A DNA stretch of 64,000 nucleotides from Synergistaceae bacterium UBA6083 (GTDB lineage Bacteria; Synergistota; Synergistia; Synergistales; 79-D21): the NCBI GenBank assembly GCA_002436015.1, contig DIXJ01000010.1, positions 45,860-109,859 of the forward strand. Direction: 5' to 3'. This document shows positions 904 to 59,141 of this stretch, piece after piece. The position numbers and the translations under genes are program-made. The notes beneath the pieces are model-generated. The model was not told the DNA's origin, did no database searches, and was given only the letters and a program-made list of their open reading frames with translations. How positions within the stretch are numbered: position 1 is the stretch's first letter; each line of letters opens with the position of its first letter.

Positions 904-1176
904 CAGCCCCTTCCAGGGGAGAATAAACACTAAAACTAAAAATTAGCGCTTTTATCAAGCTAATTATAAAGTATTGGCTCTGCAAAGCAAGCAAAAAGCC
1001 GTAAAAAGTAGCATATATTAAATGGAAGGGTTACAAACTGTAATCTTGGCGGCTCCTGTGCACCGAGGTTTTTTAGCTTTTTAAACAGGGGTGTGGGTTT
1101 ATCCCGCACACAAGGCCGGGCACGGGAGAAAAATCCGAAAAAATTAAACGCATTTCCTTGCATACAACAGTCCTGA

Positions 1177-1219
1177 AATTCGGGACAGGTACAAATTCAT
1201 TGCGTTCACAATCACAAGC
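1177..1219 (+). repeat. 43-bp dispersed repeat, copy 1
   Basis: AATTCGGGACAGGTACAAATTCATTGCGTTCACAATCACAAGC; AATCACAAGC recurs 13 bp later (1223-1232). Confidence 0.95.
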
Positions 1220-1252: not shown

Positions 1253-2434
1253 ATGCTTGAACTGCAGGAACTGCAGCAGCGTACGGATCGCTTCCTTGAC
1301 GAAAGGGCCGGCGAGATGGCGGCGTTCAGCGATTTTCTCGGGCATCATCCGGAACTGCCGGCCGAAGAACATGAAAGCAGCCGGCTTTTTGTCGAGGCCC
1401 TGGAAAAAAACGGCTTCGAGGTCGAGTTCCCCTTCCTGGGCATCGAGACCGCCTTCATGGCGAAGAAGCGCCGCGGGGAAGGCGGAGTGGTGGCCCTCCT
1501 GGCGGAATACGACGCCCTGCCGGAGATTGGGCACGCCTGCGGGCACAGCCTGCACGGGACGCTTTCCCTTTATGCCGGGCTTGCCCTGGGGCAGGCGGTG
1601 GAGGAAACCGGCGGGGAAGTATGGGTGGTGGGCACACCCGCGGAGGAAGCCGACGGGGCCAAGAGCCCCATGGCGGACGCGGGGGTCTTCGACGGGGTCG
1701 ACCTGGCGATGATGGTGCACGCGTCCGGGGGAATCACCTGGACGGATTACCGTTCCCTGGCCCTGCACGGCTACGATATCACCTTCAGGGGAAAACCGGC
1801 CCATGCAGCGGCGGCTCCATGGGATGGGAGGAACGCCCTGAACGGGGCCAAGCTTTTCCTTGTGGCGATGGACATGCTTCGTCAGCAGGCCCGGCCGGAA
1901 ACCCGCATGTACGGGATCATCACGAACGGCGGCTCCGCGGTGAACGTGATCCCGGATTTCGCGGCCTGCCGGGTGGAGGTTCGGGCCCCGGAGAGGATCG
2001 GGCTGGACGAGCTGATGGGCCAGGTCTTCGACTGCGCACGGGGGGCCGCAATCGCCACGGGAACCTCCGTGGAGTGGGAAAAATACCTCCAGAGCTTCGA
2101 CGACATGCGCCCCAACCCGGCCGCCGAGGGGCTTGTTAAGGAAATGCTTGAGAAGCAGGGATTTGCCTGCTCTCCCAGTCCGGGCGCCATGGGTTCCACC
2201 GACGTGGGCAACGTTTCCTACCGCTGCCCGGCGATCCAGCCCATGATGGCCATCACGGAACGGTCCCTGGCCCTCCACACGCGGGAATTCGCCGAGGCGA
2301 CCTTCACCCCGGAGGCTCACGACGCCCTCTTGCGTGGAGCAAAAGCCCTCGCGGCCACGGGCCTTCGCGTTTTGACGGACCCTGCCTTGCGGGCTCGGAT
2401 CCACGCCGACTTCCTAATTCGGGACAGGCACTAA
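1253..2434 (+). CDS. M20 family amidohydrolase (AbgB/Acy1L2-like)
   Basis: HPEL..EE, AEYDALPEIGHACGH, GTPAEE, GSTDVGNVS, HT motifs; GGAGG RBS. Confidence 0.9.
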   Translation: MLELQELQQRTDRFLDERAGEMAAFSDFLGHHPELPAEEHESSRLFVEALEKNGFEVEFPFLGIETAFMAKKRRGEGGVVALLAEYDALPEIGHACGHSLHGTLSLYAGLALGQAVEETGGEVWVVGTPAEEADGAKSPMADAGVFDGVDLAMMVHASGGITWTDYRSLALHGYDITFRGKPAHAAAAPWDGRNALNGAKLFLVAMDMLRQQARPETRMYGIITNGGSAVNVIPDFAACRVEVRAPERIGLDELMGQVFDCARGAAIATGTSVEWEKYLQSFDDMRPNPAAEGLVKEMLEKQGFACSPSPGAMGSTDVGNVSYRCPAIQPMMAITERSLALHTREFAEATFTPEAHDALLRGAKALAATGLRVLTDPALRARIHADFLIRDRH

Positions 2435-2458
2435 TTCATTGCGTTCTCATTCACATGA
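2416..2458 (+). repeat. 43-bp dispersed repeat, copy 2 (contains M20 stop codon)
   Basis: AATTCGGGACAGGCACTAATTCATTGCGTTCTCATTCACATGA. Confidence 0.95.
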
Positions 2459-7904: not shown

Positions 7905-7947
7905 TCATGTGAAAGTGAACGCAATGAATTTGTACCTGTCCCGAATT
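7905..7947 (-). repeat. 43-bp dispersed repeat, copy 3
   Basis: Reverse complement reads AATTCGGGACAGGTACAAATTCATTGCGTTCACTTTCACATGA; exact 13-bp tandem CCGAATTACGCCT x2 at 7941-7966. Confidence 0.95.
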
Positions 7948-7958
7948 ACGCCTCCGAA

Positions 7959-25731: not shown

Positions 25732-26289
25732 ATGCCGGAAAGCACGAACGGTTTCTACGAGCTCCGCGTAGCGGGGCTCACCCGCCGCCTGAAAAAGGTC
25801 CGGGTGGCCGACTCCCTTGTGATCGCCTCGTTCGTCATGCTGGGGGACACGAAGCTGATCGAGTCCTGCGCCGACGCCCTGCTGCCGCTCCTGCCCAAGG
25901 AGAAAATCGACATGCTGGTCTGCCTGGAGGCGAAGGGGATCCCCCTGACCCACGCCCTGGCGGTTCGGCTCGGGGTGGATTACATCACGGTGCGCAAGTC
26001 CGTGAAAAGCTACATGGAGAACCCCCTGGTGGTGGAGGTCCAGTCCATCACGACGGCGGGGAGCCAACTCCTCGTCATGGACGGGGTGGACCGGGCCAAG
26101 GTGGAGGGGAAACGCATCTGCGTGGTGGACGACGTGGTTTCCACGGGAGGATCCCTGCGTTCCGTAGAGAAACTGCTGGCCGAGGCCGGGGCCGAGGTGG
26201 TCTCCAAAACCGCGGTGCTGCTCGAAGAGGGCGGCTACGACGGGCAGGACCTGGTCTACCTCGAGAGGCTCCCGGTCTTCCCGGACTGA
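25732..26289 (+). CDS. Purine phosphoribosyltransferase (Apt/Xpt-like)
   Basis: EAKGIP, RKS, VVDDVVSTGGS PRPP motif. Confidence 0.85.
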   Translation: MPESTNGFYELRVAGLTRRLKKVRVADSLVIASFVMLGDTKLIESCADALLPLLPKEKIDMLVCLEAKGIPLTHALAVRLGVDYITVRKSVKSYMENPLVVEVQSITTAGSQLLVMDGVDRAKVEGKRICVVDDVVSTGGSLRSVEKLLAEAGAEVVSKTAVLLEEGGYDGQDLVYLERLPVFPD

Positions 26290-26330
26290 AACTGGACAGG
26301 TACAAATTCGTTGCGTTCACATTCACAAGA
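26288..26330 (+). repeat. 43-bp dispersed repeat, copy 4 (5' end diverged)
   Basis: GAAACTGGACAGGTACAAATTCGTTGCGTTCACATTCACAAGA, between stop codon and terminator. Confidence 0.92.
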
Positions 26331-37966: not shown

Positions 37967-38771
37967 CGCCCTGCAGTTCGGTTTCATGAGGAATGCCCTC
38001 CTCGCCGGCCTGCTGGTCAGCATTGCCTGCGGGATCATCGGGACCCTCGTGGTGGCCAACCGCCTCGTCTTCCTCGCTGGGGGCATCGCCCATGCCGCCT
38101 ATGGAGGGGTGGGGCTTGCCCTGTTTGCCGGTTTCTCCCCCTTTTTGGGGGCCATGGGTTTCAGCCTCGTCATGGCGGTCCTCCTCGCCGCCCTTACCGT
38201 GAAAAGCAAAAACCGCGCCGACACGGCGGTGGGGGTCCTCTGGGCAGTCGGCATGGCCCTGGGGGTCATTCTCGTCGACCTGTCGCCCGGGTACAGGGCC
38301 GACCTCATGAGCCTCCTTTTCGGGAGCATCCTCACCGTGAGTTCCCGGGAACTCTGGATGATGGGGGGAACGACGGCCGTCGTGGCAGCGACGGTGGCCC
38401 TGAAATACCGTGACCTCCTGGTTCTCTCCTTCGACCCCGAGTTTGCCGCCACCCGGGGTGTGCGTGTCGCGAGGCTCCACACTCTCCTGCTGCTCCTGGT
38501 GGCTGCCGGGACGGTTGTGGCGATTCACGCCGTGGGGCTCATCCTGGTCATTGCCCTCTTCACCATTCCGCCGACTCTCGCCGAACGCTCCTGTCGCTCC
38601 CTCGCGGGCATGATGGCCGTCGCGACTGCCTGGAGCGCCCTCTTCACCCTCATCGGCCTGGACCTCTCCTACCGCCTCAACCTGACCTCCGGGGCCACCA
38701 TCATCCTCGTCGCTGCCTTCGCCTTCTTCCTTGCCTCGGTCCGGGGCGCAAAAAAACGGGGTGGGATTTAG
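37959..38771 (+). CDS. znuB: Zn/Mn ABC permease
   Basis: FMRNALLAG, IAHAAYGG, LFGSIL, SFDPEFA. Confidence 0.88.
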   Translation: MIDALQFGFMRNALLAGLLVSIACGIIGTLVVANRLVFLAGGIAHAAYGGVGLALFAGFSPFLGAMGFSLVMAVLLAALTVKSKNRADTAVGVLWAVGMALGVILVDLSPGYRADLMSLLFGSILTVSSRELWMMGGTTAVVAATVALKYRDLLVLSFDPEFAATRGVRVARLHTLLLLLVAAGTVVAIHAVGLILVIALFTIPPTLAERSCRSLAGMMAVATAWSALFTLIGLDLSYRLNLTSGATIILVAAFAFFLASVRGAKKRGGI

Positions 38772-38787
38772 CCCCGCCCCGTTTTTG
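38752..38787. terminator. Bidirectional terminator
   Basis: AAAAACGGGGTGGG-loop-CCCGCCCCGTTTTT. Confidence 0.75.
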
Positions 38788-38810
38788 AACGGTTTTGCCC
38801 TCCACCCGAA

Positions 38811-39815
38811 TCAGGGGGCGAGGATGATCTTGCCGAAGTGTTCCGCCCGCTCCATGCGCTCGTGGGCGAGGGCAGCGTCCTTCAGCGGCATCACCGTGTC
38901 GATGACTGGGCGGATGAGGCCTTCCTCAACGAGGCGGAATACCCGGCGGATCTCTTCCGGGGTGCCTCCGTACGAGCCGAAGGCGGTGATCTCCTTCCGG
39001 TAGATTTCCTGGAGGTTGACGTGGACCTCGGCACCCGAGGTGGAGCCGCAGAAGGCGATGCGGCCTCCTCGCCTGAGGGAGGCGATGCTGCGGACCCAGG
39101 TTGCCTTGCCGACGGTTTCAAGGACGAGGTCGACCCCGTGGTCGCCCGTGAGACGGCGAACCTCGGCCGAGAAGTCGCTCCCGGAATCGATGACGGCGTC
39201 GGCACCCAGGTCGTACAACCGGGTTCCCTTCCGGGTGTCTCGCGTCGTGGCGAAAACGCGGGCACCCATCGCGTTGGCCAGCTGGATTGCCGCAACGCCG
39301 ATCCCGCCCGTGGCCCCGACGACGAGGACGGATTCGCCGGGTTGCAGGTTGCCCCGGGTGATGGCCATCCTATAGACCGTTGTGGTCGTGAGGGGAACCG
39401 AGGCGGCTTCCTCGAAGCCGAGCTTGGCCGGCTTGCGGAGCAGGGCATGGGCGGGCGCGACCACGTACTCGGCGTAGCATCCGTCCCGGGCCACCCCGAA
39501 TATCCGCACCGACAGGTTGGGCGGGTCCGCGTAAGGGCGATCCGGGAAGATCCAGGGGGTCACCACCACTTCGTCGCCCTTTTGGTACCCCGTCACACCG
39601 GAGCCCAGCCTTTCAACGATCCCGGCGCCTTCGCAGCCCGGGACGATCGGCATCGGGGCGAAAACCGACCCCAGCCGCATCCAGATGTCCAAATGGTTCA
39701 CGGCTGCGGCCTTGAGCCGGACCAGGACCTCCCCGGCCGACGGTTCCGGCGTCGGGGTTTCCTCCCACTTCAAGACTTCTGCCGGGCCTGGTGCGTGAAC
39801 GCGGATCGCCTGCAT
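38811..39815 (-). CDS. MDR-family (quinone/alcohol) oxidoreductase
   Basis: NHLDIW, PGCEGAG, GATGGIG, HFGKIIL. Confidence 0.88.
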   Translation of the reverse strand: MQAIRVHAPGPAEVLKWEETPTPEPSAGEVLVRLKAAAVNHLDIWMRLGSVFAPMPIVPGCEGAGIVERLGSGVTGYQKGDEVVVTPWIFPDRPYADPPNLSVRIFGVARDGCYAEYVVAPAHALLRKPAKLGFEEAASVPLTTTTVYRMAITRGNLQPGESVLVVGATGGIGVAAIQLANAMGARVFATTRDTRKGTRLYDLGADAVIDSGSDFSAEVRRLTGDHGVDLVLETVGKATWVRSIASLRRGGRIAFCGSTSGAEVHVNLQEIYRKEITAFGSYGGTPEEIRRVFRLVEEGLIRPVIDTVMPLKDAALAHERMERAEHFGKIILAP

Positions 39816-39840: not shown

Positions 39841-39883
39841 GCTTGTGATTGTGAACGCAATGCATTAGTGCCTGTCCCGAATT
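39841..39883 (-). repeat. 43-bp dispersed repeat, copy 5 (contains nucleotidyltransferase stop codon)
   Basis: Reverse complement reads AATTCGGGACAGGCACTAATGCATTGCGTTCACAATCACAAGC. Confidence 0.95.
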
Positions 39884-41145
39884 AGCCAGGAGCGGGCCTC
39901 GGCGGGGGTCGAAACTTCCCCGCAGGCGACGGCCTCGTCAAGCTTTGCGAGGATTTCCCCCACCCGGGGGCCTTCGGCAAGGCCCAGGATATCCATGACT
40001 TCCCGGCCATCCAAAAGGCGGCCGGCCTGTTCCAGGCGGAAAAGCCCCGCGAGGGCCCGTGCGCGGTTCTCCATCCAGGGCATGAGGCGGCCGCTTCCGG
40101 CAAGCACGTCGGCATAGCCCAGGACGAAGAGGCGCTCGAGCCACTCTCCGCCTAACACCCGGATCTGCCGGGCCATTCCCCCTTCGGGCCACGCGGCCGA
40201 GGGCATCCGGTGCCATCGCACGAGGCTCGTGACAACTTCCGCGAATTCCTGGGGCCAGGCCCACTTGCGGGCCATCTCCCTCACGAGGTCGGCCCCGTCC
40301 TTCTCGTGCCCCGTGAAGCAGGCGGGCGCGTCTTCCGTGGAAGCGCAGGACGCCTTTGCCACGTCGTGGAGAAGGGCGGCGGCGCGGATCGCAGGGTCGG
40401 GCGTGAGTTTCTGGACGGTGTCCAGGCAGAGGCGGGTATGGAGGTAGGCGTCTCCCTCCGGGTGTTTATCGGGATCCTGCTCGATTCCCTTCAGGGCTTC
40501 GATTTCGGGCAGGATGGCTCCAAGGAGGCCCGTGCCGTTCAGCATGTCGAGGAAAAGGCCGATATCCCCTTCCAGGGCTTTCATGAGTTCCTTTCCAAGG
40601 CGTTCCCCCGGCACCCGGGCAATCATCCGGTAAAGTTCCGGGTCGCGACAGGCCGATTCGGAGTCGGGAGCCACGGTGAAAAGGGGAAGCGTGGCGGCGA
40701 ACCGGAAAAGCCGGACGGCCCGCACGGCGTCCTCGCCAAGGCGCTCCGAGGCCTTTCCGTTGAACCGGAGTCGCCTGCGGGTGAGGTCTTTCTCTCCGCC
40801 CCTCGGATCCACGAGGGTCCCGAGCCGGGTCATGGCCATGGCGTTCACCGTGAAATCCCGCCTGCCGAGGTCGTGCTCGAGGCTGAACCCGCAATAGGAA
40901 CAAAACTCCACGGATACGCTCCCGCACTGGAGGAGGGCAGTCTGGAGAGGAGGCTTGCCGACCGGCTTGGCCCCGGGCCAGAGGCGCAGCACAACCTCCA
41001 GGGGGGCGGATGTGGCGATGTCCACGTCCGTAATCGGCAGGCCGAGGAAAAGGTCCCGGACGGCGCCTCCCACGAGAGCCCCTTCGTAACCTTCGTTTTC
41101 CAGCGCGAGCAGCCACTCAAGGGCCGTCTTTATTTCTTGCTTCAT
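39865..41145 (-). CDS. cca: Class II tRNA nucleotidyltransferase with HD domain (possibly CC-adding)
   Basis: VGGAVRD, DVDIAT, RRDFTVNAMA, EDAVRAVRLFRF, HPEGDAYLH, LLHDVAK. Confidence 0.87.
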   Translation of the reverse strand: MKQEIKTALEWLLALENEGYEGALVGGAVRDLFLGLPITDVDIATSAPLEVVLRLWPGAKPVGKPPLQTALLQCGSVSVEFCSYCGFSLEHDLGRRDFTVNAMAMTRLGTLVDPRGGEKDLTRRRLRFNGKASERLGEDAVRAVRLFRFAATLPLFTVAPDSESACRDPELYRMIARVPGERLGKELMKALEGDIGLFLDMLNGTGLLGAILPEIEALKGIEQDPDKHPEGDAYLHTRLCLDTVQKLTPDPAIRAAALLHDVAKASCASTEDAPACFTGHEKDGADLVREMARKWAWPQEFAEVVTSLVRWHRMPSAAWPEGGMARQIRVLGGEWLERLFVLGYADVLAGSGRLMPWMENRARALAGLFRLEQAGRLLDGREVMDILGLAEGPRVGEILAKLDEAVACGEVSTPAEARSWLIRDRH

Positions 41146-41189
41146 CGCATCATCCCCTCACCGTAAAGTATAGCAGAGGGGTTCGACAA

Positions 41190-41237
41190 AGAAGAGGGGA
41201 TTCTTCGAGGCAGGCCTCGAAGAATCCCCTCTTCTTC
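41190..41237 (-). terminator. Terminator after ferredoxin
   Basis: AGAAGAGGGGGATTCTTCGAGG-CAGG-CCTCGAAGAATCCCCTCTTCT long stem. Confidence 0.75.
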
Positions 41238-55756: not shown

Positions 55757-57907
55757 TTACGGGACCCGGACGACTGTCGTGGTTCCGTCGTCCCAGGTTG
55801 CGGCCAGTTCGTAGCGAGACGCCGGAAGCTGCAGGGTTCCGTTGTTCTCCACGAAGAGTTGGAGGTTCCGGTTCGGCGGGACCGGGAAGGAAACGGACCC
55901 GTCGGGCTTGTTCAGGAGCTTGGCGCCTGGAACCCGGACAGCCATCGTCCACCGGCCGTTTGAAGGGATCGTGTCCCAGATCCCCCTTACACCGATGTTC
56001 CTGAGGGAAAGAGACTTGATCGTTCCCCTGCCCCTGATCTTCAGCGTGAAAACCCAATCTCCCTTTCCGTTTTTCAAAAGCCGGTCATAGGGCCCGACGA
56101 AGTCGCTCGAGGCTTGCCACGGCTTCGACAATTCCAACTCGCGCTTTTCGATCAACGGGAGCGCGCCGGGGGCAGGAAGGACACCGATTTCCTTTTCGAG
56201 CAGCTGCCCGTCGCTGAAGGCGAGTGAAACTCGCCATTTCGACGCCGGTTCGGCCAGGGTATTGTTGTCCTCGACCCAGAGCTGCAATGCCGTGGTCCCT
56301 TCCACGGGAACCTTGACGGACCCGTTGGGTGCGTTCAGGACCCCCCCTCCGGGCCGGGTCACGGCCAGGAGCCAGCGGTTGTTGTTGGGGATCGTGTCCC
56401 ATTCCCCGCCCTTGGTGAGGTTGACCAGCCGGACAGCCGTCAGGGTTCCCGCTTTCGTGAACTTGATATCGAAGCGGTAATCCCGGTTCAGGTTGCCCGC
56501 GAGCTTTTCGTTAGGCCCGACGTAGTCGTAGCTGCCCGTGCCCGCCAGTGAGGCTTCCAGGAAGTTTCCGTCCCCCGTTGCAACCGGGGCGCTGTAAGGC
56601 TTGATGTCCTCTTCGAGGATCCTGCCGTCATCGTAAACCAGCGTGAGCTTTGAGCGCGTTTCAGACCGGCCCAGCGAATCGTTGTTCTCGAGCCAAAGGA
56701 TGAACGCCATGGGTTCCGATATGGGGATGTTGATCGCACCGTCGGCGCGGTTGAGGATTTCTCCGTTCGTCCGCGTTACGGCCAGGAGCCACTTGCCGTT
56801 TCCGGGCAGGGTGTCCCATTCCCCGGAGGGGCCCTTCACGTTGGTGACCTTCATCCCGATCACGGTTCCGGGGGAATCCGACTTCACGTCGATGCGCCAG
56901 TCGGGTTTTCCGTTGCCGGCCCGTTTCTCGCTGCCGCCGACAAGGTCGCGGTTCCCCTCCCCCATCATCGTCGCCTGCAGGCGCTCCGACTGGGTCACCT
57001 GGGGTTCTGCAGCCTGTGCGGCGATGGTTCCGCGCAGCCGCTTGCCGTCGGCAAAACGCAAAATTACCTCGAAGCGTGTTTTCCCTTCGGCGATGGAACC
57101 GTCATCCGACATCCAGAGGTCAAGGGCCGACCTCCCGGAAAGCGGGATCTCGACGCTGCCGTCATTCCTGTTCAGGGTGTTCCTGCCCCGTACGACGGCG
57201 AGTGCCCACCGACCGTTGCCTGGAATCGTGTCCCACGCCGTAGTTGGCCTGCCTTCGACGAGGTTGCGCACCTCGATTTCCGTCAGCGTGCCTTCCCCCT
57301 CCAGTTCAAGGCGTATGCGCTCGTCGGGACGCCCGTCGCCCGTGAGTGTTTCGTTCCGCCCCGCGAGGTCCCGGTTTGTCTTTTCCAGCCAGCCGACCGA
57401 GACGATTCTCGCCGTGGTGGCTGTGATGGACGGCGGGATCGTGATGGTGGAACTGGCCTCGGAGTTGTCCAGGAACCGCGCCGTGAGGGTGAACTTGCCC
57501 CCCCGGGCGATCGCGCCGTTATCCGCCACGGCAAACTCCACGCCCAGCCCGAGCAGGAACGGAACCATGGGCAGCCTGCCGTTGGCTTCGGTCAGCAGGT
57601 TCCCGGAGTTGTCCCTGACCCGCATTCCCCAGCTGGAATTGCCCGGGGTCGTGTCCCAGGTACCGTTGCCGTCCACTGCTCTCAGTATGAGTCCCGCAAG
57701 GGCGCCGGCACCGCTGATCGATGCCGAGAACCGGGCATCCGGCTTGCCGTCGGGGGTGCTGCTTTCCCCTTGCCCGACAACGTCATCCGGACCGAATCCG
57801 TTGAAGGTGAAACCCGCCACTTCGCCCATGGCCGCGAAAGCCCCCGTTGCAATCAACAGGAGCATCGCGACCGAAGTTGCCAATGACCTGAAAGCCTTTC
57901 TTCGCAT
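55757..57907 (-). CDS. Secreted protein with five tandem ~135-aa repeats of unknown family
   Basis: Signal peptide ending GAFA; five WDT(I/T/L)PxNxxW motifs. Confidence 0.85.
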   Translation of the reverse strand: MRRKAFRSLATSVAMLLLIATGAFAAMGEVAGFTFNGFGPDDVVGQGESSTPDGKPDARFSASISGAGALAGLILRAVDGNGTWDTTPGNSSWGMRVRDNSGNLLTEANGRLPMVPFLLGLGVEFAVADNGAIARGGKFTLTARFLDNSEASSTITIPPSITATTARIVSVGWLEKTNRDLAGRNETLTGDGRPDERIRLELEGEGTLTEIEVRNLVEGRPTTAWDTIPGNGRWALAVVRGRNTLNRNDGSVEIPLSGRSALDLWMSDDGSIAEGKTRFEVILRFADGKRLRGTIAAQAAEPQVTQSERLQATMMGEGNRDLVGGSEKRAGNGKPDWRIDVKSDSPGTVIGMKVTNVKGPSGEWDTLPGNGKWLLAVTRTNGEILNRADGAINIPISEPMAFILWLENNDSLGRSETRSKLTLVYDDGRILEEDIKPYSAPVATGDGNFLEASLAGTGSYDYVGPNEKLAGNLNRDYRFDIKFTKAGTLTAVRLVNLTKGGEWDTIPNNNRWLLAVTRPGGGVLNAPNGSVKVPVEGTTALQLWVEDNNTLAEPASKWRVSLAFSDGQLLEKEIGVLPAPGALPLIEKRELELSKPWQASSDFVGPYDRLLKNGKGDWVFTLKIRGRGTIKSLSLRNIGVRGIWDTIPSNGRWTMAVRVPGAKLLNKPDGSVSFPVPPNRNLQLFVENNGTLQLPASRYELAATWDDGTTTVVRVP

Positions 57908-58911: not shown

Positions 58912-58920
58912 TCTGCTTGG

Positions 58921-59008
58921 CATCGGGGGAGTCGGAAAACCGGCTGAGAGGAGGCGAAGGCCTCGACCCCTGGAACCTGATCCGGGTCATACCGGCGAAG
59001 GAAAGATG
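58921..59008 (+). ncRNA. TPP riboswitch
   Basis: GGGGAG..CTGAGA..GACCC..GAACCTGATCCGGGTCATACCGGCGAAGGAA; P1 CATC/GATG; upstream of thiT. Confidence 0.95.
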
Positions 59009-59141
59009 CGAGCCATTCCATAAGCCGCGTTTCCCTTCAGGTCCTCCCCGTACGGTTTCCCTTTCCCCAGGTGCCCAATTGCTGTCCATGCCGGTTGTGA
59101 ATGCATCCCGGCCTGGGGCAGATTCCTGGGGGAATGGAGTC

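Follow-up and report, generated by a model that had tools for sequence, protein, structure and literature searches.

Two unrelated genes of the window (the whole stretch of 64,000 nucleotides that was analysed) end in the same six residues, LIRDRH*, where the asterisk marks the stop codon. This shared ending very probably arises where a solo terminal inverted repeat (TIR) of a TIRYT transposase is read in frame, and is likely to be a neutral by-product.

The repeat behind the shared ending

The M20 peptidase gene closes with TTC CTA ATT CGG GAC AGG CAC TAA (window 2411-2434, plus strand), which gives the protein end ...ADFLIRDRH*, and the last 21 of these nucleotides return unchanged on the minus strand at 39885-39865, where they close the open reading frame of a tRNA nucleotidyltransferase-like gene. 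The original prediction that both genes take LIRDRH* from the same 21 nucleotides of a repeat was confirmed, the repeat being 42 nt long. Five copies lie in the window (Table 1) and eight clear copies in the genome, six of these on this contig; the eight, seven of which were used to build the copy profile, are confined to three of the 16 contigs of the 1.33-Mb assembly. The exact repeat (as a 16-nt pattern) is present in 4 of 31 genomes, all of this genus.

A genome-wide count of such endings had been proposed as a check, and it agreed with the claim: IRDRH closes two of the 1,189 crudely called genes against 0.0003 expected from the composition of the last ten residues. In all six frames of this 56% complete genome RDR[HY]* is found at those two genes only, and a third gene outside the window (C13:10866), which from its sequence looks epimerase-like, has a related tail, LIRNSH*, from a decayed copy. 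The source is a metagenome assembly of limited completeness, which could point to chance or to an assembly artefact behind the shared tail; however, this origin is extremely improbable in view of the count and of identical junctions in independent assemblies. An artefact is unlikely because L126 and L146, two independent metagenome contigs, both contain the nucleotidyltransferase junction, and because L116 (LNRDRY*) and the relative G008, whose positional M20 orthologue ends ENRDRY*, have a filled M20 site.

It had also been claimed that copies of the other sequence subtype follow TAA or TGA triplets. This is right at 26287-26289, where TGA is the true stop of the phosphoribosyltransferase gene, partly right at 7949, where the true stop lies 13 nt upstream beyond a 13-nt duplication, and wrong at 1175, where the copy lies within a 5' leader, with no gene stop before it. 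In relatives the register is not set by the subtype: GGTACTAA copies give RDRY* tails and GGCACTAA copies are also found after stops.

Table 1. Genes, repeat copies and related loci (window positions unless a contig is named)
Feature	Position	Strand	Remarks
Solo TIR	1175..1216	+	5' leader of M20 gene, right after a -10-like hexamer (by eye); missing here in G005
M20/M25/M40 peptidase (amidohydrolase) gene	1253..2434	+	ATG 1253, stop 2434; Pfam Peptidase_M20 and M20_dimer
Solo TIR, in-frame register	2414..2455	+	First 21 nt give LIRDRH* and stop of M20 gene
Solo TIR	7908..7949	-	After stop of TPP-binding (2-oxoacid oxidoreductase beta-like) gene, behind 13-nt tandem duplication of junction; terminator-like hairpin comes next
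Solo TIR	26286..26327	+	Positions 1-3 are TGA stop of phosphoribosyltransferase gene; terminator-like hairpin comes next; spacer shorter in G004/G005 orthologues
Empty allele of TIRtron locus	38736..38813		Between convergent zinc-binding dehydrogenase and metal ABC permease-like gene
Solo TIR, in-frame register	39844..39885	-	LIRDRH* and stop of nucleotidyltransferase gene, then ribosome-binding site of next gene
PolyA_pol and HD tRNA nucleotidyltransferase-like gene	39865..41145	-	Ends ...RSWLIRDRH*
GGGGTCAG-type TIR doublets	G000:C6 131-192, 18503-18564, 19221-19282, 20619-20680, 76124-76178, 76520-76566

Apart from the clear copies, a decayed ninth one at G000:C6:61154 (+), intact in L120 and L136, faces in antisense the ribosome-binding site of a gene that resembles those for sugar ABC ATPases; at G000:C6:43296 (-) a stop is followed by a short doublet whose outer end is the same. 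The repeat on contig C3 carries a T-run indel, and the gene before it (G000:C3 near 202202) recurs on C3 in a near-identical form that lacks the repeat. An Rfam scan of the window returned only a TPP riboswitch (58915-59021, plus strand; RF00059, 75.5 bits) and no match for the repeat. Two other repetitive features of the window are four diverged 42-nt blocks about 420 nt apart at 55937-57235, within ORF 55757-57907, which likely encodes a repeated-domain protein, and a perfect 23-bp inverted repeat at 41189-41236, likely a terminator that acts in both directions, immediately upstream of the promoter region of the nucleotidyltransferase gene.

Peptide, codons and orthologous gene ends

The suggestion that selection keeps LIRDRH as a C-terminal tag, for instance a degron, was not upheld and is very unlikely to be correct. 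The last four residues, RDR[YH], do recur at nine unrelated genes across the genus, but the 17 in-frame copies vary at residue 1 (L, A, S, Q or E), at residue 2 (I, N or K) and at residue 6 (Y in nine copies, H in eight), with AIRDRY, SIRDRY and QKRDRH among the variants. A C-terminal degron would show protein-level conservation with synonymous freedom; here the peptide varies and the codons are fixed. Each of the core codons CGG GAC AGG is fixed in 16 of the 17 in-frame copies, with no third-position change save one that is non-synonymous, and the non-coding copies (n=26) are equally invariant (CGG 25, GAC 26, AGG 25); most copies were collected by near-exact patterns, so this conservation is inflated, the comparison of orthologues being free of that bias. 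The leucine codon used, CTA, makes up 2.5% of Leu codons in this genome. Depending on the relative, one gene ends RLIRDRH*, RLRRGVRP*, RLKSPRT* or RLR*, orthologue tails drift where the repeat decays (LTRKRF, LTRNRP), and the targets range from membrane proteins to unrelated enzymes.

The last residues of canonical bacterial C-degrons are nonpolar. With the ssrA tag and its relatives the tail has in common that a short C-terminal peptide is found on unrelated proteins, but it is gene-encoded through a DNA repeat, has a charged end and is not conserved as a peptide. No tmRNA was found by ARAGORN in the first four contigs. The available part of PMC7246954 reports that charged and polar C-termini raised protein levels, which is a further point against a degron.

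It was originally predicted that the insertion replaced or truncated the native 3' ends. For these two genes truncation is not supported and replacement hardly so, as the orthologues stop at the same or nearly the same place. For the nucleotidyltransferase, four of five same-genus orthologues share the stop codon (LTRKRF*, LIRNRA*, LTRNRP*, LVQNGP*), and the fifth, that of G008, ends LTKKG* one codon earlier without the repeat and is the earliest branch in the protein tree (support 86/89). The L of WL is found across the family, and homologues from other families carry short unconserved tails past the same helix. The two closest M20 orthologues likewise have six residues past the conserved F, and those of G004 and G005 end SKSAPR* and AKSAPR*, which is the same length. 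The tail touches only the last four to six residues, which are conserved in neither family. A shared ending in orthologues without the repeat had been named as evidence against the repeat as its source, and half of this was found: one orthologue in which no repeat can be recognised ends LIRNRA*, and at two others the end is itself a decayed repeat.

Remnants were sought by scoring the repeat profile in a fixed register over 39 positions, a test blind to remnants whose stop has moved. A decayed colinear TIR was recognised at the nucleotidyltransferase end of G005 (24/39, LTRKRF*) and G004 (22/39, LTRNRP*), the best of 1,186 other gene ends scoring at most 20; the insertion is therefore old, and the tail drifted as the repeat decayed. 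The ends of this gene in G001 (16), G003 (13) and G008 (11) have no standout score. At the M20 gene G004 is borderline (19/39, top 0.9%) and G005 is not a remnant by this test. In total 2 of 32 alleles scored above every non-TIR gene end, and the rest, besides M20 of G004, were not significant. More repeat remnants are present at four other genes, and tail lengths differ at other genes (LIRALLQHGR* vs LIRDRH*; SVRGAKKRGGI* vs SIRDRY*). Gain cannot be told from loss at those genes, because several empty alleles are remnants that keep the first bases of the repeat.

Likeness to the repeats of TIRYT transposases

By sequence comparison, the 42-nt repeat is assigned to the TIRs of a TIRYT Y1 transposase (TnpA-REP subclass 2.1-like) carried by relatives. 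At G008:C20 an inverted pair of repeats, 28078 (+) and 29111 (-), about 1 kb apart, stands around a gene for a 222-aa Y1 protein, and the same TIR - Y1 - TIR arrangement is found at this locus in metagenome contigs L124-L126 (84% aa) and L143-L144. Dispersed TIR copies number 16 in G008 and eight in this genome. The 222-aa protein reaches 52.5 bits with Y1_Tnp (cut-off 23) and carries NHVH, WQ and YVELNP, which were checked against the subclass 2.1 table of PMC6006769 (NHVH, W[EQ], YIELNP; class 2 Y---NP); with the RAYT model NCBIfam NF047646 (REP_Tyr_transpos) it scores 77.9 bits, under the cut-off of 80. About 95 residues follow the Y1 core, and no HTH Pfam family was found in the protein at E up to 1. 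The TIR core, CGGGACAG, matches GGGGWSAS at seven of eight positions, and sister families of this genus match it fully; as far as the available text of PMC3733652 and PMC6006769 goes, some or most TIRs carry this motif, not all.

A Y1 HUH gene between long non-palindromic inverted repeats, together with moderately abundant dispersed TIR copies whose core is close to GGGGWSAS, is what the system shares with the TIRtrons and TIRYTs of Di Nocera et al. 2013 (PMC3733652, in its accessible part). With TnpA-REP subclass 2.1 (Quentin et al. 2018, PMC6006769, likewise in part) it has the NHVH, WQ and Y-ELNP motifs in common, with 222 aa here vs a median of 238. It differs from both in the single mismatch of the core, in a C-terminus on which no HTH family scored and in copies that are solo, not dimers. 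The tight placement at stop codons and the in-frame tails also set the repeat apart from the TIRs described in the available parts of the same two papers.

GTAG REP/REPIN elements with RAYT enzymes (E. coli TnpA-REP, PMC3333891, available part) resemble the present system in enzyme class, in repeats located downstream of genes and in sequence variability and tandem amplification at the junctions, and REP termini are said in the accessible part of PMC3733652 to "often provide" the stop codon of flanking ORFs, as the repeat does here. In contrast to these elements the repeat has no GTAG tag, no hairpin and a low copy number. A GTAG/CGTC REP was therefore rejected: the consensus bears no such tag, and all five window copies fold no better than shuffles (z -0.49 to +1.74), so that no RNA hairpin or stem-loop was found in them. 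According to the part of the review PMC3184786 that was available, residues encoded by MITE, ERIC, BOX and RPE repeats likewise extend or end the 3' ends of unrelated genes; the partner here is an HUH enzyme, not a DDE transposase. A MITE was also rejected, as the copies are solo, with no paired TIRs around a short core. No consistent target-site duplication was seen, filled and empty alleles differing by lost or swapped spacers. As a whole, TIRYT TIR families, REP ends that give stops and repeats fused to gene 3' ends are already described, so far as the available text of PMC3733652 and PMC3184786 shows. Neither this repeat nor a placement of TIRYT TIRs at stop codons came up in a literature search of largely open-access papers.

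The cognate transposase is absent from this assembly, 56% complete, as judged by a Y1_Tnp search and tblastn. The interval that in G008 and L124-L126 holds a TIR, the 222-aa Y1 transposase and an inverted TIR (about 1 kb) is empty here (Table 1). This genome, L146, G004 and G005 have a homologous empty TIRtron allele with a bidirectional terminator-like hairpin (L085 was also compared). The state of the locus departs from the host tree, as the close L124-L126 and the distant G008 are both filled, with identical junctions; homing or recombination is a possible cause of this pattern.

Two sister TIR families with a GGGGTCAG core read GVRP*, GVRS* or GVRA* in the same register, and in relatives they occupy the same gene ends as the GGGACAG family. 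Two genes of this genome end GVRP* from a sister family (GGGGTCAGACC core), at G000:C6:54433-54447 (+) and G000:C13:30646-30660 (-). On G000:C6 the GGGGTCAG-type TIRs form head-to-head doublets with 45-60-nt hairpins, REPIN-like and mostly intergenic (Table 1). Nearly all TIR copies of the three families are located on contigs C6 and C13. The stop-terminator slot at G000:C6:56958 (-) holds a TIR of the GGGGTCAGGTC family here and one of the GGGACAG family in L128, L117 and L151, and L142 has a fourth TIR-like variant with the same GGGACAGGCACTAAT core, a different inner part and an 8-nt duplication upstream.

Placement at stop codons and its possible causes

Copies from this genome, G001, G002, G004 and G008 and from 43 metagenome stretches were pooled into 66 distinct contexts, one of which, at a contig edge, was dropped. 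Of the remainder, 56 contexts represent 23 gene-end sites; nine others are two cut-off copies of known gene-end sites and seven that make up about six further sites. In all, 23 of about 29 distinct sites in the genus lie at gene 3' ends, all 23 in sense orientation. At 14 of them the gene stop falls at -12 to +1 of the repeat and is mostly the repeat's own first TAA; at the other nine, translation runs six codons into the repeat (xxRDR[YH]*) and stops at its second TAA. Among sites that are not in frame, 14 of 20 lie within -12 to +1 of a stop, compared with 3.9% of non-coding positions (p about 6e-16), this null being taken from our own gene calls. Offsets at one gene differ among relatives, for example 0, -4, -5 and +1, -7, -12.

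The original prediction that copies at coding ends survive only where they supply an in-frame stop stood the test. Repeat positions 18-20 form a stop codon in each of the 17 distinct in-frame copies vs 12 of 26 copies after a stop, and read-through frames occur at none of the 23 gene-end sites. A replication-strand bias was tried as the source of the orientation and rejected on C13, where the GC skew is positive in all 12 windows and copies are found on both strands (four plus, two minus); orientation therefore follows the genes. An insertion sequence suspected between two G008 copies was rejected as well, the interval holding two ordinary genes.

Across the phylum, 62 of 201 genomes have a related motif, 11 of them in at least seven copies. 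In G131, which belongs to another family, a same-strand stop lies within 45 nt in 3 of 14 copies of a sister TIR, none of them in frame, a count that rests on a crude ORF call in a lower-GC genome. The odd part is the tight hugging of stop codons in this genus, which was not seen in the one other family tested.

Under the explanation preferred here the TIRYT, by analogy with known enzymes, would nick and rejoin single-stranded DNA at the outer end of the repeat and so shift that end toward the nearest gene. E. coli TnpA-REP cleaves and rejoins single-stranded DNA at C|T, creating variability and tandem copies (PMC3333891, available part). The TIRYT would make and maintain solo copies and spread them near its own locus. 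Small deletions and duplications at the outer flank would bring the repeat end against a stop until a needed element halts them, and only junctions that still provide a stop codon would survive selection. The stop could be crossed only where the loss is confined to a dispensable tail and the second TAA stands in frame. What is conserved would then be a putative DNA binding or cleavage site, not a peptide. Tandem duplications of at least 7 nt across the outer junction occur in 9 of 125 TIR contexts (three families) vs 3 of 1,189 gene ends, one of them inside the window at about 7950. Copies here deviate from the consensus at a mean of 1.7 of 36 positions (n=7) vs 0.4 in G008 (n=15), which has the cognate gene; a higher deviation would be expected here if upkeep had ended when the enzyme was lost. 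Against this link, no cognate Y1 was detected in G001 and G002, which have one and three near-perfect copies, respectively.

The main rival is direct targeting of stops, which we regard as unlikely although the most credible of the alternatives. It says that the TIRYT inserts the TIR directly between stop and terminator, so that the native spacer is replaced and older copies are overwritten, and that the cue is a short likeness to the outer end of the TIR (C-T-purine) or the exposed non-template strand at gene ends. Besides the uniform sense orientation of the gene-end sites, which on C13 holds on both strands under one GC skew, this rival gains from a C before the stop at 10 of 14 after-stop sites vs 32% of genes (p 0.003) and from a terminator-like hairpin, starting no more than 31 nt from the inner end, at 11 of 23 sites vs 15-16% of gene ends. 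Different TIR families hold the same gene ends, and the junctions and length of the TIRtron are identical in G008 and L124-L126, though the flanks of L124-L126 are close to those of this genome, which is empty; the transposases are 0.78 identical at four-fold sites, above their neighbours (0.63, 0.53). However, the shared TIRtron junctions could come from homologous recombination with an unsampled relative, decay also explains the likeness of empty alleles to the TIR, and the pattern is not seen in G131. Among the sites away from gene ends, one copy follows a promoter-like hexamer (window 1175) and one is antisense toward a ribosome-binding site (by eye), and these two fit a repeat end that stops at the nearest essential element equally well.

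A stronger form of this thought, somewhat less likely still, is that the TIRYTs of the genus are site-directed gene-end rewriters, which would home the TIR to the stop-terminator slot of transcribed genes, re-cut the outer end, displace rival families and repeatedly swap the last four to six host residues (RDRH*, GVRP*, GVRS*). If it is true, the sites would let the target rule and the activity of a large transposase subclass be read from genomes.

About as doubtful is that the repeat is kept for a domesticated, REP-like host role, either at the 3' ends of mRNAs or as a protein-binding site on the chromosome, with the peptide a by-product; it can be combined with the preferred explanation. The 36-nt core is 95% identical at orthologous sites vs 66% at four-fold sites (34 pairs, a value biased upward by the way copies were collected), and several sites, in sense and between stop and terminator, are common to three or four genomes. 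A host role is weakened by the lack of a hairpin in the five window copies compared with shuffles, by copies that decay or vanish at the same genes in G001, G003, G004 and G005, and by the presence of just eight copies in 1.33 Mb, on few contigs.

Taking the shared end as the reading of a TIRYT repeat, the protein tag as such is without importance and the tail is a by-product; when proteins share a tail of the RDR[HY]*, GVRP* or GVRS* kind, this is best taken to indicate a TIRYT repeat. The junction duplications point to where the TIRYT may cut. Among TnpA-Y1 groups subclass 2.1 ranks second in size and is present in 14.9% of strains (PMC6006769, available part). The data set offers a compact TIRYT-TIR pair with 23 mapped gene-end sites in filled, empty and decayed alleles, and binding and cleavage of TIRs by TIRYTs, left open by Di Nocera et al. 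in the available part of PMC3733652, are now testable with short oligonucleotides on this pair.
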